From: Ferruginibacter sp.
GTDB taxonomy: Bacteria; Bacteroidota; Bacteroidia; Chitinophagales; Chitinophagaceae
DNA: 64,000 nucleotides
NCBI GenBank assembly: GCA_049840995.1
Contig: JASGIP010000002.1
Reading direction: 5' to 3' (one strand)
In this document: piece by piece, positions 23,983 to 32,406 of the stretch
Layout: the number at the start of each line of letters is the position of its first letter
How positions within the stretch are numbered: position 1 is the first letter of the stretch
Position numbers and translations under genes: made by a program
The notes under the pieces: generated by a model
What the model saw: the letters and a program-made list of their open reading frames with translations, nothing else
Told to the model about the DNA's origin: nothing
Database searches by the model: none

Positions 23983-25317
23983 TCAATTTTTTATGGTATT
24001 GAGCATGCTGTTATAAAACCGCTGGAGCAGGCGCATATTTTGTGTTATGATCTCTGCCTGGGCTGCAAGGCCATCGGTAAACTGCACTTGTTTTTTATAA
24101 TTGGTCTGTAGCTTGTTTGGCAAGATCACTCTTGCAAGATAGCCGCTGTCGGTGGTGATATTGGAAATGAAATCGATCCTTCCCCGTACGTATCCATATT
24201 CCTGGAAAGGGTAGGCGGCAAATTTTAATTGTACTTCCTGGCCAATATGCACTTTTCCAAAATTGGTTTGAGGTATATGGATCTCTGCATAATAAGATGC
24301 GTTGCCGGGATTCACAAAACATATTACCCGGTTGTTTTCCAGCTGTTGGTTTTCTTGCAGGAAGCTGGCAAATGCTACCACGCCATCAACTGGTGCGGTT
24401 AAAATATATTTCTTTTTCCATTCTTCCAGTTCGCTTTTGAAAGTATTTAATGACTGGATGAAAATATTTTTTTGTTGTGCCACCTGGTTATCCAGTTCCA
24501 GTATCTCTTTTTGTTTTTCATTTTGTGTGTTCTCATTACTGAGCAGGTTGCTGCTGATCTGTGGCAGGGATATTTTTTTATTCAGCAGTTTACTTTCCTC
24601 GTTGCGGTAATCGAAAGCGGATATCACGCCGTCTGTTTTCAATTGTTTGTTGGCATCAAATGTTTGCTGTGTTAGATCAAGATCCTTCTCCAGGATTTCT
24701 TTTTGCTGTTCCAGTGCCGAATGCTGCCGCTGCAGGTTCATCATATCTTTCTGCAACATATTTTTTTTGTGCAGATAAAAACCGCTGCTGAGGTAATCGC
24801 AGAATTGGCGCAACTGCTGCATGAATGTTTGGTATTGCGGTTGTAATTCGCCCAATTGCTGGTGAATGTCGGTAAGATAGGGCAGCGCTTTTTCGGGTGC
24901 GTTGTTATCAAGATGATACCGAAGGTTGTCAATTTCCTGGTCCAGTGCGATCACTTCTTCAGGATCGGCAATACTTTCCATGAAGGCGAGTACTGTTCCT
25001 TTTTTGACGAATGTATTTTCTTTTACAAAGAGCCGGACCAGTTTTCCCGCTATGAGTGTTTTAACTTCTTTGGGCGCATTCAGGGAGGTGAGCTTTGCTT
25101 TTGTAAGAACAGTGTCCGGGTAGCTTATCAGCCAGCAGGCAGCGATCATCAGCAGCAATACCACCAGGAAAATACTGGTACCCCGCCTGGTAATAAAGCC
25201 CGGCCGGTTGGATATGATTTCCTGTATCAAGGAATCCTGCAGTTCTTCCTTTGTTGCTGTAATGCTTATTTGCTCACTGTTATGTGTAGACGTAATATGA
25301 TGCCTATTGACTGGCAT
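23983..25317 (-). CDS. HlyD family membrane fusion protein of a type I peptide exporter
   Basis: Single N-terminal TM, lipoyl half-motifs (VKKGTVLA; LTAPVDG), coiled coil, AYPFQEYG; start 25317 avoids a 71-nt overlap with the transporter. Confidence 0.88.
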   Translation of the reverse strand: MPVNRHHITSTHNSEQISITATKEELQDSLIQEIISNRPGFITRRGTSIFLVVLLLMIAACWLISYPDTVLTKAKLTSLNAPKEVKTLIAGKLVRLFVKENTFVKKGTVLAFMESIADPEEVIALDQEIDNLRYHLDNNAPEKALPYLTDIHQQLGELQPQYQTFMQQLRQFCDYLSSGFYLHKKNMLQKDMMNLQRQHSALEQQKEILEKDLDLTQQTFDANKQLKTDGVISAFDYRNEESKLLNKKISLPQISSNLLSNENTQNEKQKEILELDNQVAQQKNIFIQSLNTFKSELEEWKKKYILTAPVDGVVAFASFLQENQQLENNRVICFVNPGNASYYAEIHIPQTNFGKVHIGQEVQLKFAAYPFQEYGYVRGRIDFISNITTDSGYLARVILPNKLQTNYKKQVQFTDGLAAQAEIITQNMRLLQRFYNSMLNTIKN

Positions 25318-25327
25318 ATAGTTATTT

Positions 25328-27520
25328 TTAATTGCCCATTTCAAGTTGATTGCGCACGAGTTCAAAATAATTTTTCTTTCTCCTGGCCAATTGCTCATGC
25401 GTTCCTTCTTCTATGATCTCACCTTTGTCCAGCACCACGATCTTATCGGCGTTCTTTACCGTACTTAAGCGGTGCGCTACCACCACCACTGTTTTGCCTT
25501 TAAAGAATTCCTGCAATTGTTCCATAATGAGTTTTTCATTATTGGCATCCAGGGCGTTGGTTGCTTCATCAAAAAAAAGGTATTCGGGATTTTTGTATAC
25601 GGCACGGGCTATTAAAATGCGCTGTCTTTGCCCGGCACTGATGCCATTACCTTCGGCGCCTATTTTTGTCTGGAACCCCAGCGGCAACGATTCTATGAAG
25701 GAGAGTATATTAGCCACTTTGCAGGCATGCAGTAATTTTTTGTGATCGGTCACTTCGTCACTTACCGCAATGTTTTTGGCAATGGTATCGCTGAAGATAA
25801 AGCCATCCTGCATTACCGTACCGCAATTGTGCCGCCAGTATTTGGGGCTGATATGTTGCAGGCTGCTGTCGCCTATTTTTAAACTGCCCTTATAACCACT
25901 GTAAAATTGCAGCAGTAATTTTAACAGTGTTGTTTTACCACTGCCACTCATACCTACTATGGCGGTGACCTTGCCCTCGGGTATCACGAGATCTAAATTT
26001 TTTAATACCGGTTCATTACCTGCACCGGCGTAAGTGAAAGAAAGATCATTGATATGGATAGATCTGTCCTGTGGTAAATGCGTGATGAAAGTTTTTTCTG
26101 CCGGTTCTTCTTCTTCCAGTTGATGGATCTCATTGAGCCGCTCCAGGCTTATCCGTGCATCCTGTGCCTGTTGCACAAAACTGATCAATTGTTCTATAGG
26201 GCTGTTAAGCTGACCGATGATGGATTGTATAGCCATCATAGCGCCCAATGTCAACTGACCATCGAGCACTGCTTTGGCAACAAAAAATGTAATGAGCATG
26301 TTTTTTCCTTCATTGATAAATAATGCCCCGGCCTGCTGGTATTGACTTAGTGAAAGGTTTTTAAAGCTGAGATTAAATATGGATGCCTGTACATTTTCCC
26401 ATTCCCATCGACGCAGGTGCTCTGCATTGTTCAGTTTTATATCCTGCATGCCCTGTATCATCTGCATGGTAATACCATTTTCTTTTGCAGAGAGGTCGAA
26501 GGTTTTATAATTGAGGTTGCGGCGGTATTTTAAAAACAGTTTTATCCAGGAAAAATATATAATGCTGCCGATACAGAAAATGAAAAAGATTCTCCAGTCG
26601 TACATTAAAAGCACAATCGAGAACATCACGAGGTTGATGCAAGAAAACAATACGTTCAATGTTGACCCGGTGAGAAAGGATTCTATTTTACGGTGATCGC
26701 CTATGCGCTGTAAAATATCCCCGGTCATTTTGGTATCAAAAAATGAGAGTGGCAGGCGCATCAGTTTTATCCAGAAGAAAGATAATAAGGAAAGGTTGAT
26801 CCGGGTACTGATAAATAACAATATGCGGCTTCGGATAAATTCTACAACCGTTCTGCCAAAGAACAGCATGAACTGAGCAATCAAAACAATATAGATGAAT
26901 TGGAGGTTGTGCGTATTGATGCCGGTATCAACTATGCTTTGTGTAAGAAAGGGGAGTACCAATTGCAACAGGCTGCCGATGCCCAGGCCCATGAATACCT
27001 GCACAATGTATTTTTTATGCCGTGTAAGCTGCTGTAACAATATGCTCCATCCCAGTTTTTTATCTTTATCACCTTCCTGTTTATAGAATGCGGCTGTTGG
27101 TTCCAGCAACAGGGCAATGCCCGTTTGTTCGCTGTTGTTTTTATTACTGCTCCATTTTTTTAAAAAACTCTCTTTACTGCATTCGATGATCCCGGTGGCT
27201 GGGTCTGCTATAATAATTTTTTTAAGGGTTGAAGAGGGAGTTACCACCACGAAATGGTCCTGTCCCCAATGTACAATGCAGGGCAGCTTTGTTGCTTTAA
27301 TTAATTGCTCAAAATTCAATTTTACGCCTGCTGTATGGTATCCTATGTTCTCTGCCGCTTCGCTGATGCCTAATAGTGATACACCTTCTTTACTGAAACC
27401 GCTTTTTTGCCGCAGGTTGTCCAGCGAAAAATGCCGTCCGTAATATTTACTGATCATGCGCAGGCAGGATGGCCCGCAATCCATGGTATCGTGCTGCTTA
27501 TAAAATGGGAAGGTTGGCAT
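25328..27520 (-). CDS. Peptidase-containing ABC transporter (C39 + ABC; PCAT)
   Basis: QHDTMDCG catalytic Cys, HW...HF catalytic His region, TM domain, Walker A GMSGSGKT, ISAGQRQR signature, FFDEATNALD. Confidence 0.95.
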   Translation of the reverse strand: MPTFPFYKQHDTMDCGPSCLRMISKYYGRHFSLDNLRQKSGFSKEGVSLLGISEAAENIGYHTAGVKLNFEQLIKATKLPCIVHWGQDHFVVVTPSSTLKKIIIADPATGIIECSKESFLKKWSSNKNNSEQTGIALLLEPTAAFYKQEGDKDKKLGWSILLQQLTRHKKYIVQVFMGLGIGSLLQLVLPFLTQSIVDTGINTHNLQFIYIVLIAQFMLFFGRTVVEFIRSRILLFISTRINLSLLSFFWIKLMRLPLSFFDTKMTGDILQRIGDHRKIESFLTGSTLNVLFSCINLVMFSIVLLMYDWRIFFIFCIGSIIYFSWIKLFLKYRRNLNYKTFDLSAKENGITMQMIQGMQDIKLNNAEHLRRWEWENVQASIFNLSFKNLSLSQYQQAGALFINEGKNMLITFFVAKAVLDGQLTLGAMMAIQSIIGQLNSPIEQLISFVQQAQDARISLERLNEIHQLEEEEPAEKTFITHLPQDRSIHINDLSFTYAGAGNEPVLKNLDLVIPEGKVTAIVGMSGSGKTTLLKLLLQFYSGYKGSLKIGDSSLQHISPKYWRHNCGTVMQDGFIFSDTIAKNIAVSDEVTDHKKLLHACKVANILSFIESLPLGFQTKIGAEGNGISAGQRQRILIARAVYKNPEYLFFDEATNALDANNEKLIMEQLQEFFKGKTVVVVAHRLSTVKNADKIVVLDKGEIIEEGTHEQLARRKKNYFELVRNQLEMGN

Positions 27521-27612: not shown

Positions 27613-27861
27613 CTATGAAGGATTCATGCAGGTGCAGGATGCAGGCCAAGGTGGATTGTACATGCATCCCATCGCATCTACCTGAAGTGTTTCAGGGTCG
27701 CAATTAGGCACTGCAATGGCAATTGGGGTTGTGCATTCGCCACCAGATGCAGCTGCGCAACACCTGAAAAGGCATCCATTGGGTAATTTATACCCTCCTT
27801 TTACATTTTTCATTTCTTCTTTGGACAACAGTGTGCCCAAATCTTTATATTTCATTAACAT
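27613..27861 (-). CDS. Double-glycine leader precursor peptide with an 8-Cys core
   Basis: LSKEEMKNVKGG leader; 59-aa core C-x3-CC-x7-C-x10-C-x11-C-x9-C-x-C; directly upstream of the PCAT. Confidence 0.88.
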   Translation of the reverse strand: MLMKYKDLGTLLSKEEMKNVKGGYKLPNGCLFRCCAAASGGECTTPIAIAVPNCDPETLQVDAMGCMYNPPWPASCTCMNPS

Positions 27862-27971: not shown

Positions 27972-29582
27972 TTAAAAGAAGTGGTTTAATTCGTTGATGC
28001 TGTAGTTTTCGGGTAATATCTTTTCATTTACAAAAAGGGTGGGTGTGTACATTATAGAAGAGGCTTTGCACCATTTAGTCATGGCTTCTACTTTTGCGTC
28101 CTGCATTTTCAGTTCGCCGTTCATGGGATATTTTGCAGCGAATGAAGGATAATCTTTTTGTGGTGCCAGGTACCAATCATCCAGCGCCTGCTGTGTTTGC
28201 TGCGCATTTCCTTTGGCAGCAATTGCCAACAAATGTTTCACCACAATGGCTGCTTTATCCTGTTCATTATTAGCGGCGGTAAAAATGATCTTGATCTTTA
28301 CATCATCATTGCGATGCAATATTTCTTCCAGTGCCGGGTGGGCTTTTGCACATGGACCGCAGTAGGGGTTGCATACTTTAATGATGGTTTGCGTAGCAGC
28401 TGGATTGCCGAGTGTTATACCAATATCCTGGTAGCCGGGTGCCGCAGTTTCTTCCTGGTTCAGCAGGCCCTGGAATACACTGGGATTATAGAAAAGTCGC
28501 TTATAAGCGGATTGATAATCTGCCCGTGCTTTTAGCCGAAGCCATACGGGTTTAATAATATACCATGCGGTAATGGGTACAAGGGTGGCTGTAAGCATGT
28601 TAACAGCGATCGCTCCTGAAATTGGTGGCAATGCCGGGTGTTGCCAAAAGTTAACCATACTCCAGGTTAGCTCCAGTAACAGTATCGCCTGTACGCTGAG
28701 GCATAAAGTACACCATTGTTTTACGATCTTCCATTGGTAATAAAGACTGAAGGGGATATAAGTTGCCGCAACGCAATTGGCAACCGCCAGCCAGGATATT
28801 TTTGCTGCATAGGAAATACCTGGCAACAGCAAAAACAATGTAGACCCCATAAAATAAAAAAAGCCCAGTTCGCCCCAACTGATGCCTGATATTTTTGCAG
28901 CCTTGCTATTTAACACCGCATCACAATTGGTGCGTGTGCCGCCTGTACAGACGCTTTTTACAAACTGGTTGCTTTTGTCGATATCGTATACCAGCAGCAA
29001 AGCAGTTACAGCAATACCTGAAAGTTTTAGCAACAAAATAGCTGTTGCCGAAAATGCAGCAGCACCTGTTGAAAATAAAAAACTGCCGATGAGTAAACCA
29101 ACAATTAAAATGGCGCTCAGTACCAGTCTTGTTTTTGCTGCGCTTGCTTTTTTCTCGTCCATTAAATGCTTTTCATAATCCGGTTCACCGCTTTTATCAG
29201 ACCGCTCTGCAACAAACACGATCTTTTCCCATTTCTCTATGAATTTTTCACGGTTCATAGTACGGGATCTGTTGGTACTGGATATATAACTGATCTGCCC
29301 TGCACTAATGCCTGTTACCAATACAAAATCCTTTTCATCGTCTTCCAGTTTCATGTAGGCCACAAAGGGTGTTTCCATTTCATCCAGTCTTGTCGGGTCT
29401 ATGCGGAAAGACTGGTTGGGAATATTTAATTTATCAAATACATCATTCAGGCTGTAAAGCGTTGGATAGTAAGGATTTTCTTCGATGCGCTTTTGCAATG
29501 TTTTTTTTGTGACGGGTATGGACAGGTGTTGTACATATTGGTAGGCAGTCTGTGATAACCTGCTCGAAATTGGCTGAAGCAT
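27972..29582 (-). CDS. C39-like domain / VKOR / thioredoxin(DsbA)-like fusion membrane protein
   Basis: N-terminal C39-like fold lacking the QxxxxDCG Cys; VKOR loop C212-x7-C220, SWGELG, and WCTLC (C291/C294); Trx CGPC (C408/C411) and YTPT cis-Pro loop. Confidence 0.88.
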   Translation of the reverse strand: MLQPISSRLSQTAYQYVQHLSIPVTKKTLQKRIEENPYYPTLYSLNDVFDKLNIPNQSFRIDPTRLDEMETPFVAYMKLEDDEKDFVLVTGISAGQISYISSTNRSRTMNREKFIEKWEKIVFVAERSDKSGEPDYEKHLMDEKKASAAKTRLVLSAILIVGLLIGSFLFSTGAAAFSATAILLLKLSGIAVTALLLVYDIDKSNQFVKSVCTGGTRTNCDAVLNSKAAKISGISWGELGFFYFMGSTLFLLLPGISYAAKISWLAVANCVAATYIPFSLYYQWKIVKQWCTLCLSVQAILLLELTWSMVNFWQHPALPPISGAIAVNMLTATLVPITAWYIIKPVWLRLKARADYQSAYKRLFYNPSVFQGLLNQEETAAPGYQDIGITLGNPAATQTIIKVCNPYCGPCAKAHPALEEILHRNDDVKIKIIFTAANNEQDKAAIVVKHLLAIAAKGNAQQTQQALDDWYLAPQKDYPSFAAKYPMNGELKMQDAKVEAMTKWCKASSIMYTPTLFVNEKILPENYSINELNHFF

Positions 29583-29773: not shown

Positions 29774-31654
29774 ATGCGCTTTTTAAACCAAACTCTTATG
29801 AAGTGTTGCCTTTTTGTACTGTGTATATTAACCAGTTACATCAGCCAGGCACAGCCCGGCAGCCTGCAGGAACTTATTGCCAGGGCCAAAACAGAAAAAG
29901 ATACCACCCAGGTAAATACATTGATAGATATTGCTGCCACTTACAGCTACAATGGGGCGCATGACAGTTCGGATTATTATACCCAACAGATACTGGAAAA
30001 ATCCACACAGCTCAATTACCCAAAGGGTATTTGTATGGCCTATAATGCCTGGGCAACGAGTTATATGGTACAGGGCAACTACGATAAATCGCTGGCTGAA
30101 TATTTTAAAGCCCTTGACATTGCGGAAAAGAACGGGCTGGAACAGGCTGAGATCATTATGACGATGAATATTGCAACGGTATATACTTTCCAGGAAGAAT
30201 TCAATAATGCCATTCCTCTTTTGAAAAAAGTGTACAACTATGTTTTTAATAAAAAACACAATATCATGCGCTCTGCAGGTGTAGCCACCAATATTGGTGT
30301 TTGTTTTCAGCACCTGGGCCGGATGGATTCTGCAAGGGCTTATTTTGATCGTGGCCTTGAACTGGAAGCTGCAATTGATACTGCCGGCTTTACAGAAACC
30401 AAGTGGGCGGAGTACGAATTGCTGAAAGGAAGTTCTCTGCCTAAAACAGCAGATTTTTATGTTGGTATTGGTAATCCCCGAAAAGCACTGGACCTGATAC
30501 TTCCTTTTTGGAACGACATAAAAAAAGGCGATGATAAGGAGGGGCAGTTGTCTGTTTTAACAGTATTGGGTAAATCGTACCTGGCCATTGATAAATACGA
30601 CAGCGTGATCTATTACAGCAATATTGGCCTGGGGCTTAATATGGCTGAACAGATCCCAGAGTCGGTAAAGGATATTTATTTCAACATTGCTTCGGCGTAT
30701 AATAAGACCGGGCATTTTAAAGAAGCTTTTGAAAGCCAGCTGCGTTTTCAGCAACTGAATGATTCTATTTACAACAAAGAAAAGTTCAGGTCCATTAAGA
30801 ATATGCAGGTGAAGTATGAAACGGAGAAGAAAGAACAACAGATACTTTCATTGAATAAAGAAAAAAAAGACCAGTTTATCATTATAGGAATCTCGATCGC
30901 TGCTTTTTTAATTGCGCTGGTGCTTTTGCTTTTTGTACTCCGTTCTAAAAGGTTTCAGAAAGAATTATTCCGCAACGAAAAGCTGTTGCAGAATAATGAG
31001 CTGGAGCGAAAGATGACCGAGCTGGAACAAACCGCCCTGCGGGCGCAGATGAACCCGCATTTTATTTTTAACTGCCTCAATTCTGTGCAGCGTTTTGTTA
31101 TTAAAGGAGATATTGAAGGAGTGAATACTTACCTCGCCACTTTTGCAGGATTGATACGACAGACGCTGGAAAATTCCGGAAAGAAATGGATCGTGCTTAA
31201 AGATGAGATACAATACCTGCAATCTTATTTAGGAGTGGAGCAAATGCGTGGAAATACTATTTTTCAATACCAGGTTACTGTTGATCCGGCGCTGGATACC
31301 AGTATGGTACTGGTACCGGGCATGATCATTCAGCCCTTTGTGGAAAATGCTATTAATCATGGCATGTCCGGCAAAGCAGCAGGGGCGGGCAGGATCATCC
31401 TGGATTTTACAAAGACAGATAAACTTGTATGCAGTATCACTGATAATGGTAATGGTATTAAAAATTCCGGTGGTCTTGCAAATGCTGCACACCAATCGTT
31501 GGGCAATGATATTACCAAGAAAAGAATTGCAGCGTATAACGCTTTGGAGCAGGATGCTATTGAACTGGATATTACAGATCTTTCAGAAAAGGATGCTGCA
31601 ACTACCGGCACCATGGTCCGTATCAGTTTTCCGTTGAAAATAAATGAAGCATGA
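29774..31654 (+). CDS. TPR-containing LytS/YehU-type sensor histidine kinase
   Basis: Signal peptide, TPR repeats, one TM, ALRAQMNPHFIFNCLN, QPFVENAINHG, DNGNG. Confidence 0.92.
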   Translation: MRFLNQTLMKCCLFVLCILTSYISQAQPGSLQELIARAKTEKDTTQVNTLIDIAATYSYNGAHDSSDYYTQQILEKSTQLNYPKGICMAYNAWATSYMVQGNYDKSLAEYFKALDIAEKNGLEQAEIIMTMNIATVYTFQEEFNNAIPLLKKVYNYVFNKKHNIMRSAGVATNIGVCFQHLGRMDSARAYFDRGLELEAAIDTAGFTETKWAEYELLKGSSLPKTADFYVGIGNPRKALDLILPFWNDIKKGDDKEGQLSVLTVLGKSYLAIDKYDSVIYYSNIGLGLNMAEQIPESVKDIYFNIASAYNKTGHFKEAFESQLRFQQLNDSIYNKEKFRSIKNMQVKYETEKKEQQILSLNKEKKDQFIIIGISIAAFLIALVLLLFVLRSKRFQKELFRNEKLLQNNELERKMTELEQTALRAQMNPHFIFNCLNSVQRFVIKGDIEGVNTYLATFAGLIRQTLENSGKKWIVLKDEIQYLQSYLGVEQMRGNTIFQYQVTVDPALDTSMVLVPGMIIQPFVENAINHGMSGKAAGAGRIILDFTKTDKLVCSITDNGNGIKNSGGLANAAHQSLGNDITKKRIAAYNALEQDAIELDITDLSEKDAATTGTMVRISFPLKINEA

Positions 31655-32406
31655 AAATTACCGCACTAATAATTGATGATGATGCCGACAGCAGGATGAT
31701 ACTGCGTGCCTTTATGGAGCAATACTGTCCGCAGGTAGCTATTGCCGCTGAAGCTGCATCGGTGGCTGAAGGATTTGAAAAGATCACGGAACTGCAACCC
31801 GACCTGCTGTTGCTGGATATTGAGATGAAGGACGGTACGGGTTTTGACCTGCTTCGTATGATGCCGCAGAAAAAATTTGAAGTGATCTTTATTACGGCTT
31901 ATGATACTTATGCAGTGGAAGCTTTTAAATATACCGCTATCGGCTACCTGCTGAAACCTGTACTGGTTGCAGACCTGGTAACTGCTGTGCAGGCTGCTTT
32001 GGAAAGGATCAGGAAAAATATTTTTGAATCGCAATGGATGGCGCTTTCGCATAACCTGGAGAGTAAGGAAAGGTATGACCGCAAGCTTGCTATTGCAACT
32101 TCGGCAGGATATGTGTTTGTGAATGTAAAGGAGATATCGTGGTGCGAATCGCAGGCCAACTATACGGCATTTCATTTTTTATCCAGCAAAAAGATCGTTT
32201 CGTCGCGTAACCTGGGTTTTTATGAAGAGTTGTTACCGGTTGAAAAATTTTGCCGTATTCATCACTCCAGCCTGGTGAATGTTGATTATATCGAAAAATT
32301 TAACCGGCGTACCAATGGTGGCTCGGTGATCATGATGGATGGTACTGAGCTGGATGTTTCTCAACGGAGGAAGGAAGAGTTTTTGCAGTATTTTTTGTCG
32401 AGATAG
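31651..32406 (+). CDS. LytTR family response regulator
   Basis: Receiver (IIDDD, LLLLDIEM, KP) plus LytTR RIHHSSLVN and VSQRRK; 4-nt overlap with the kinase. Confidence 0.93.
   Translation: MKITALIIDDDADSRMILRAFMEQYCPQVAIAAEAASVAEGFEKITELQPDLLLLDIEMKDGTGFDLLRMMPQKKFEVIFITAYDTYAVEAFKYTAIGYLLKPVLVADLVTAVQAALERIRKNIFESQWMALSHNLESKERYDRKLAIATSAGYVFVNVKEISWCESQANYTAFHFLSSKKIVSSRNLGFYEELLPVEKFCRIHHSSLVNVDYIEKFNRRTNGGSVIMMDGTELDVSQRRKEEFLQYFLSR

Follow-up and report, generated by a model that had tools for sequence, protein, structure and literature searches.

Closest described systems

In the textbook picture, bacterial disulfide bonds are formed outside the cytoplasm, and a canonical VKOR already has its N-terminus in the cytoplasm. 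Here we describe a gene in a 64,000 nt stretch of DNA (hereafter the window) from Ferruginibacter sp. (assembly GCA_049840995.1, contig JASGIP010000002.1; one strand), whose product combines a C39-like domain, an additional transmembrane helix, a VKOR core and a DsbA-like domain, and whose redox relay is strongly predicted to face inward. The gene heads an operon in which a GG-leader peptide, a peptidase-containing ABC exporter (PCAT) and an HlyD-family adaptor follow downstream on the same strand. We propose that this tri-domain protein is probably a dedicated, leader-guided, inward-facing disulfide oxidase for the adjoining GG-leader peptide.

The VKOR-thioredoxin fusion of Synechococcus (3KP9, 4NV2, 4NV5, 4NV6) and the Bacteroidota fusions with five transmembrane helices (loci L009-L031) share with the tri-domain protein the VKOR core, the loop cysteine pair, the CXXC motif, the fifth helix and a fused thioredoxin-fold partner passing electrons to quinone. 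In these five-helix fusions the N-terminus is cytoplasmic, the redox side is periplasmic, the motif is mostly CPHC and the linker is rich in Pro/Ala, whereas the tri-domain protein has six helices, reversed charges, a CGPC motif, a helical linker rich in Lys/Arg and a dead C39 domain at its N-terminus. By prediction, it does not have the topology that defines a canonical bacterial VKOR-thioredoxin fusion (five helices, N-terminus in, thioredoxin domain out). A 2026 preprint tallies VKOR-thioredoxin fusions in InterPro and does not discuss a C39-VKOR-DsbA architecture, and no report of such a fusion was found in the literature searched, which did not cover most subscription journals.

According to a 2026 PNAS paper (PMC13486548), most VKORs (bacterial, plant and mammalian) face outward, and an inward paralogue occurs only in a few Crenarchaea. 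The inward VKOR of Aeropyrum pernix (ApVKORi) makes cytoplasmic disulfides with a signal-less DsbA, and activation of signal-less PhoA in the cytoplasm provides an assay for an inward VKOR (PMC13486548). The archaeal precedent for a cytoplasm-facing VKOR that had been invoked in a preliminary description of this DNA is thus real. ApVKORi and the engineered inverted VKOR and DsbB likewise have a cytoplasmic active site and form disulfides there with a cytoplasmic DsbA, but they are of archaeal or engineered origin, stand alone and act as general oxidants. In contrast, the tri-domain protein, known here by prediction, is bacterial, is encoded in a peptide operon, and has its own DsbA-like partner and a putative substrate-recruiting domain fused to it. 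Inward-facing VKORs in the searched literature were limited to the few Crenarchaea and engineered constructs.

The N-terminal domain in turn shares its fold, predicted cytosolic setting, short basic linker and following membrane helix with the PCAT peptidase domain (PCAT1, ComA, LahT147) and the C39-like domain of HlyB; it differs from the PCAT peptidase in that the triad Cys, His and Asp are absent and in that it is joined to an oxidase rather than to an ABC transporter. At the level of the locus, a close described case is that of the bacteroidetocins, where, as here, a GG-leader Cys peptide is encoded together with a peptidase-ABC exporter and a dedicated oxidoreductase (Coyne et al. 2019). 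Toxin activity is reduced when that thiol oxidoreductase is deleted, and in E. coli a set of four genes is enough (Coyne et al. 2019); for this oxidoreductase the bacteroidetocin papers provide neither domain make-up nor topology, and a review likewise has no domain or sequence data. When a homologue labelled Bacteroidales served as the query, all relatives obtained were of Chitinophagaceae type, and a tie between the two oxidoreductases was not established.

Domain organization of the tri-domain protein

The gene and the parts of its 536-aa product are listed below (TM, transmembrane helix).

27972..29582, minus strand: tri-domain gene, encoding the C39-like domain, TM0, VKOR, TM5 and DsbA-like domain (536 aa; open reading frame list, Pfam)
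29178..29582, minus strand: residues 1-135, C39-like (PCAT peptidase-like) domain, proposed leader-docking module (Pfam PF03412, hhalign, Foldseek)
29070..29129, minus strand: residues 152-171, extra helix TM0, with the Lys/Arg-rich helix 136-151 before it (hydropathy, AlphaFold2)
28644..29066, minus strand: residues 173-313, four-helix VKOR core, TM1-TM4 (Pfam VKOR; alignment to Synechococcus VKOR structures)
28947-28949, minus strand: codon of C212, VKOR loop cysteine
28923-28925, minus strand: codon of C220, VKOR loop cysteine
28701-28712, minus strand: C291-T-L-C294 motif, the VKOR CXXC
28539..28616, minus strand: residues 323-348, linker helix TM5, extended as a Lys/Arg-rich helix to residue 364; brings the chain back to the active-site side (AlphaFold2 helix 323-364)
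27975..28460, minus strand: residues 375-536, DsbA-fold thioredoxin domain (Pfam Thioredoxin_4, Foldseek)
28350-28361, minus strand: C408-G-P-C411 motif, active site of the DsbA-fold domain

Pfam matches to the protein were obtained for Peptidase_C39 (PF03412; residues 18-128, E 2e-8, 34.5 bits against a cut-off of 22 bits), VKOR (PF07884; residues 181-307, E 7e-15, 55.8 bits against 27.5 bits) and Thioredoxin_4 (PF13462; residues 388-534, E 4e-12, 47 bits against 23.2 bits). Judged by its sequence, the protein belongs to the VKOR and DsbA-fold families, and to C39 as a pseudo-member. AlphaFold2, with 70 homologues as input, gave a confident model (pLDDT 89.2, pTM 0.74) with long helices at residues 136-171, 173-201, 236-252, 258-287, 292-313 and 323-364, and the six hydrophobic segments in the hydropathy profile of the family matched them. 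Foldseek returned the PCAT1 transporter as the best match for the N-terminal part and the DsbA-type proteins BdbD, ScsC and DsbA for the C-terminal part.

Conservation was assessed in 151 sequences, comprising 70 close homologues and a distant set of 81 sequences from named genomes (38-52% identity). The protein contains nine cysteines (212, 220, 270, 291, 294, 404, 408, 411 and 505), and residues 1-211 are free of cysteine. In an alignment with the Synechococcus VKOR structures (3KP9, 4NV2, 4NV6), the loop pair of the latter corresponded to C212 and C220 and their CXXC to C291xxC294 at the start of TM4; all four cysteines were invariant in the distant set (81/81). Within the DsbA-fold domain C408, C411 and the cis-Pro loop T513-P514-T515 were invariant, and a Y-C-G-P-C thioredoxin motif was present in 58 of the 81 distant members. 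The flanking sequence of the CGPC active site resembles that of cytoplasmic thioredoxins.

The DsbA-fold domain has two further, highly conserved cysteines, C404 and C505. A structural disulfide between them, which would favour a periplasmic location, was considered and set aside as not decisive. C404 occurred without C505 in seven sequences and the reverse was found in one, and homologous solved structures have no cysteine at either position. Because the two residues are not strictly coupled, they do not have the look of an obligatory structural disulfide.

A second pair of residues showed strict co-occurrence. K186 (29025-29027, in the middle of TM1) and E304 (28671-28673, in the middle of TM4) were both present in all 70 close homologues, and among the 81 distant sequences there were 53 K/E pairs, with the lysine never found without the glutamate. 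A buried ion pair within the VKOR core, not present in other subfamilies, is the probable explanation.

An additional helix precedes the VKOR core

The first helix of the VKOR domain, TM1, spans residues ~174-199, and TM0 (~152-171) therefore lies outside this domain. Its mean best 17-residue Kyte-Doolittle score was 2.3 in both alignments, making it as hydrophobic as the other helices. In the AlphaFold2 model TM0 is continuous with the charged helix 136-151 and leads through a one-residue turn into TM1, forming a tight hairpin. It was seen in every member examined: the 70 close and 81 distant homologues, as well as 15 members belonging to other families of the class and 5 belonging to a different class. 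No five-helix member bearing the C39-like domain was seen among these, and when 301 and 401 genomes of the phylum (Bacteroidota) were scanned, the C39-like domain and VKOR occurred together only in open reading frames of 503-600 residues.

Since a canonical VKOR starts in the cytoplasm, TM0 would be needed only if the N-terminal domain must share the face of the active site. With an even number of helices (six), the C39-like domain, the redox cysteines of VKOR and the DsbA domain come to lie on the same side of the membrane. We therefore consider it very probable that all three lie on the same face, whichever face that is.

Homology of TM0 to the first PCAT helix was also considered. Although both helices are collinear, the local alignment stops at residue 142 and the remainder is aligned without confidence, so this homology was not adopted; sub-threshold NCBIfam matches that extend to residue 166 give a faint hint of it.

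Charge distribution predicts a cytoplasmic redox face

To assign the face, lysine and arginine residues were counted in each loop using alignment-based boundaries; a simple helix finder miscounted the helices in some sequences. In the 70 close homologues the mean Lys+Arg count was 5.5 before TM0, 0.06 in the TM0-TM1 loop, 5.0 in the Cys loop (TM1-TM2), 0.97 in the TM2-TM3 loop, 2.0 in the TM3-TM4 loop and 0.43 in the TM4-TM5 loop, and after TM5 it was 5.1 (5.1-5.3 across both homologue sets). Summed by side, the face bearing the redox centres and the N-terminal domain carried 17.6 such residues against 1.5 on the other face, with the bias present in 70/70 sequences. The distant set gave 16.9 against 1.2 (81/81), or 12.2 against 1.2 when the long Cys loop was left out.

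As a control, nine five-helix VKOR-DsbA fusions of the same phylum were taken from the VKOR scan. Their counts were ~3.9 before TM1, ~3.3 in the TM2-TM3 loop and ~3.9 in the TM4-TM5 loop, against ~0.4 in the TM3-TM4 loop and ~1.1 after TM5. The charge patterns of the tri-domain family and of the five-helix fusions are mirror images at homologous loops.

Under the positive-inside rule, this bias predicts a cytoplasmic redox face for the tri-domain family. In addition, the N-terminal domain has no signal peptide (its N-terminus is not hydrophobic) and contains 18 Lys+Arg, which makes its export unlikely. Given the same-face arrangement, the predicted location of the shared face is the cytoplasm, an assignment that we regard as highly likely.

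These results bear out the topology proposed in the preliminary description from the single sequence. It had noted the lack of a signal peptide, and the N-terminus is indeed not hydrophobic; it had counted six hydrophobic helices with one extra before the VKOR core, on which the family hydropathy profile and the AlphaFold2 model agree, the extra helix being conserved family-wide. The Lys/Arg residues it had named (K203, K209, R217, K227, K230, K285, K288 and those in K344-R362) are all present in the sequence, and the asymmetry it described, with opposite loops almost uncharged, recurs in 70/70 and 81/81 homologues, far beyond chance. Its placement of the redox cysteines and the thioredoxin domain on the cytoplasmic side is likewise what the positive-inside rule predicts in 151/151 sequences, the five-helix fusions being reversed.

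The contrary arrangement would be the canonical one, with the VKOR cysteines and the DsbA domain in the periplasm and the peptide oxidized during or after export. It could take the form of a 150-aa N-terminal domain translocated without a signal peptide, or of a TM0 that does not span the membrane. Published bacterial VKORs do face outward, and the cytoplasm is reducing. Bacteriocin loci that encode their own Dsb proteins acting outside the membrane are also known, as in the case of sublancin with bdbA and bdbB, the Bacillus Bdb proteins being extracytoplasmic. However, the Lys+Arg counts of ~17 against 1.5 in 151/151 sequences are the reverse of those in outward fusions of the same phylum, TM0 is strongly hydrophobic (2.3) and is modelled as a tight hairpin with TM1, and the N-terminal domain is charged, folded and devoid of a signal peptide. 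Moreover, the PCAT and HlyD skip the periplasm, and a leader-binding domain located there would have nothing to bind because the PCAT cuts the leader at export. An outward orientation is thus improbable.

The N-terminal domain resembles a C39 peptidase without its catalytic triad

Comparison of the N-terminal domain with the peptidase domains of neighbouring PCATs by hhalign gave a probability of 98% (E 1e-13) over residues 21-140. The catalytic His of the PCAT C39 domain aligned to D85, a column that was never His in the 151 sequences, and the catalytic Asp aligned to S101. The segment of the catalytic Cys could not be aligned, and none of the columns in these sequences held a conserved Cys. 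With Cys, His and Asp of the triad all absent, the domain is a pseudo-peptidase, in agreement with the preliminary description, which had called it catalytically dead.

In PCAT1, the cytosolic peptidase domain holds the GG leader in a hydrophobic groove, and A55 is one of the two residues that form a 'hydrophobic knot' with leader positions -7 and -12. The most conserved motif of the N-terminal domain, HPxYPSLLSISD, lies around the invariant L42 and aligns with the PCAT motif GVSLLGISEAAE. Through two stacked alignments at ~15% identity, which pass via the PCAT of this window, L42 corresponds to A55 of PCAT1; I121 corresponds, likewise through two stacked alignments at ~15% identity, to the PCAT1 pocket for leader position -4. 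The C39-like domain of HlyB is a precedent for a dead C39 domain that binds substrate. From these comparisons, the dead C39-like domain may well bind the leader.

A different assignment of tasks would keep the protein facing inward but give one of its parts another job. The C39-like domain might dock on the PCAT, replacing one of the exporter's peptidase domains, or bind the peptide core rather than the leader; alternatively, the CGPC domain might act as an isomerase or holdase, shuffling or preserving thiols, and not be the net oxidant. In line with this, the PCAT1 peptidase domain also touches the transporter core, the HlyB C39-like domain binds its substrate away from the secretion signal, and CGPC is thioredoxin-like. 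Against it, the four VKOR cysteines are invariant, indicating electron flow to quinone and thus oxidation. The best-conserved motif of the N-terminal domain matches the leader-binding helix and not the transporter-contact surface, and the partner peptides mostly have even numbers of cysteines (6, 8, 4). Such a division of labour is therefore unlikely.

A general role of dead C39 domains as leader readers, fused to various enzymes, was examined as a further candidate. Across 401 genomes of the phylum scanned with the domain profile, and judged by frame length only, no other enzyme fused to a dead C39-like domain was seen. Strong matches to the dead-C39 profile fell almost exclusively in tri-domain frames of 503-600 aa, the remainder being a few short frames and weak PCAT matches, and the general role was not adopted. 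Three short frames (150-231 aa) that match the profile strongly (E 1e-13 to 1e-24) and lack VKOR come from other genomes of the phylum (G387:C21:26296-26595, G335:C1:2431416-2431757 and G371:C13:3039-3419). Each may be either a fragment of a gene or a leader-binding protein that acts on its own.

The operon encodes a candidate substrate and its exporter

The genes downstream of the tri-domain gene are the following.

27613..27861, minus strand: precursor peptide of 82 aa, the presumed substrate (open reading frame, NCBIfam leader models)
25328..27520, minus strand: PCAT of 730 aa with an intact C39 site, DCGPSC ... DHFVVV (Pfam, NCBIfam, alignment to PCAT1)
23983..25398, minus strand: HlyD-family periplasmic adaptor of 471 aa (Pfam, NCBIfam)

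The precursor consists of a 23-aa GG leader, MLMKYKDLGTLLSKEEMKNVKGG, and a 59-aa core with 8 cysteines. Leader positions L-12, E-8, M-7, V-4, G-2 and G-1 fit the consensus gripped by the PCAT1 peptidase domain.

The association of these genes extends well beyond this genome. More than 1600 homologues of the tri-domain protein were present in the protein collection, nearly all of the best 120 having the same three Pfam domains, and at least 568 stretches were confirmed in reference genomes. Among the matches listed, most were from Chitinophagaceae (Ferruginibacter, Hanamia, Puia, Ginsengibacter, Chitinophaga, Sediminibacterium and Hydrotalea), with others from Mucilaginibacter, Cyclobacteriaceae and Cytophagaceae. 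At least 38 of the 62 loci with enough downstream sequence encoded one to four GG-leader peptides (4-12 Cys, with counts mostly of 6, 8 or 4) on the same strand and no more than 4 kb downstream, and a PCAT followed in at least 32 of 50 loci; the strict pattern used makes these counts lower bounds. The order tri-domain gene, GG peptide, PCAT, HlyD was found at most of ~100 loci, from several families and two classes of the phylum. Five loci at first appeared to have exporters without a peptidase domain, but this was an artefact of calling only ATG-initiated reading frames, and the full genes carry DCGPTC.

At one locus (L118 6642-11588; genome G187, contig C4), two tandem tri-domain genes flank a single 4-Cys GG peptide, followed by PCAT and HlyD.

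The genome of this Ferruginibacter sp. contains a second tri-domain copy of 530 aa with a CNPC motif (L002 775-2367, minus strand; contig C3, ~399.8-401.4 kb). It adjoins a 76-aa GG-leader peptide with 6 cysteines (L002 440-670) and the start of a PCAT, so that two such systems are present. No DsbB and no other type of VKOR was found in this genome, which would be compatible with a general housekeeping disulfide oxidase that happens to stand beside a bacteriocin operon. Yet both VKOR genes of the genome are tri-domain genes, each next to a Cys-rich GG peptide and a PCAT, and the synteny with GG peptides holds throughout the phylum. VKOR matches were found in 3 of 16 listed genomes of the same family and in 0 of 3 other genomes of the genus, indicating that the gene is accessory and operon-linked, not housekeeping. 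In addition, four proteins of the genome pass the Pfam cut-off for the MauE family, and one DsbA-like protein is encoded on its own (C9:30536-31015). These could themselves do the housekeeping; periplasmic housekeeping oxidation, if there is any, may proceed by the recently proposed MauE route. A chance placement of a housekeeping enzyme is accordingly very improbable.

A predicted pathway of leader-guided oxidation before export

In the mechanism that we propose for the dedicated oxidase, the dead C39-like domain would hold the leader of the 82-aa precursor (L-12, E-8, M-7, V-4, GG) without cutting it, while the tethered DsbA-like domain would oxidize the 8 cysteines of the core. Electrons would leave C408/C411 for the loop pair C212/C220 and travel on through C291/C294 to menaquinone in the membrane. 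The cross-linked precursor would then be handed to the PCAT, whose active C39 domain would cut the leader, and PCAT and HlyD would export the peptide, bypassing the periplasm.

Three observations support the feasibility of this route. When VKOR or DsbB is inverted, disulfides are formed in the cytoplasm of E. coli (Hatahet and Ruddock 2013; Hibender et al. 2017; CyDisCo), and ApVKORi is a natural example of an inward VKOR. The cavity of PCAT1 measures ~15,000 cubic angstroms, and a 66-residue cargo takes up ~9,000 by the arithmetic of the same paper; scaled accordingly, the 59-aa core would need ~8,000 cubic angstroms, less than the PCAT1 cavity offers.

Other considerations weigh against this mechanism. 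Net oxidation is not guaranteed in a reducing cytoplasm, given also that CGPC is the classic motif of reducing thioredoxins. The motif, with its thioredoxin-like flanks, could reflect a redox potential that is lower, or a function resembling that of an isomerase. The support for the topology comes from the positive-inside rule, helix counting and homology logic. The mapping of L42 and I121 to leader contacts, passing through two alignments at ~15% identity, is only suggestive. PCAT1 holds its own cargo unstructured inside the cavity, which makes the export of a knotted peptide less certain. Finally, a 2026 preprint suggests that MauE could supply periplasmic oxidation; with MauE-family proteins and a free DsbA-like protein encoded in this genome, there may be a route to oxidation in the periplasm, and the argument from need is weaker for it.

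On balance, we lean towards the view that these proteins constitute the first natural bacterial family of inward-facing VKOR-DsbA oxidases, in which an added helix flips the relay and a pseudo-protease derived from the leader peptidase of the exporter aims it at leader-tagged peptides. If so, a widespread family would make cytoplasmic disulfides on chosen substrates, changing the textbook picture. Multi-disulfide peptides would arise in the cytoplasm despite its reducing conditions, with the quinone pool as the driving force, and would be exported in cross-linked form, which would explain how Gram-negative bacteria secrete such peptides by the PCAT-HlyD route past the periplasm. The dead C39 domain would represent a new leader-reading module, adding disulfide formation to the leader-guided modifications of the RiPP type, and the engineered CyDisCo systems would have a natural equivalent in the enzyme. 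A leader tag combined with one enzyme might also provide a compact genetic tool for producing disulfide-rich peptides in the bacterial cytoplasm.

Additional observations

A frame of 465 aa in another genome of the phylum (L017; genome G124, contig C5) contains a VKOR core amid many extra hydrophobic helices and has no thioredoxin domain. The phylum therefore also includes VKORs built in another way.

In the window, a TPR-histidine-kinase (626 aa) and a LytTR response regulator (251 aa) are encoded at 29774-32406 on the plus strand, divergent from the operon. This pair likely regulates the peptide locus.

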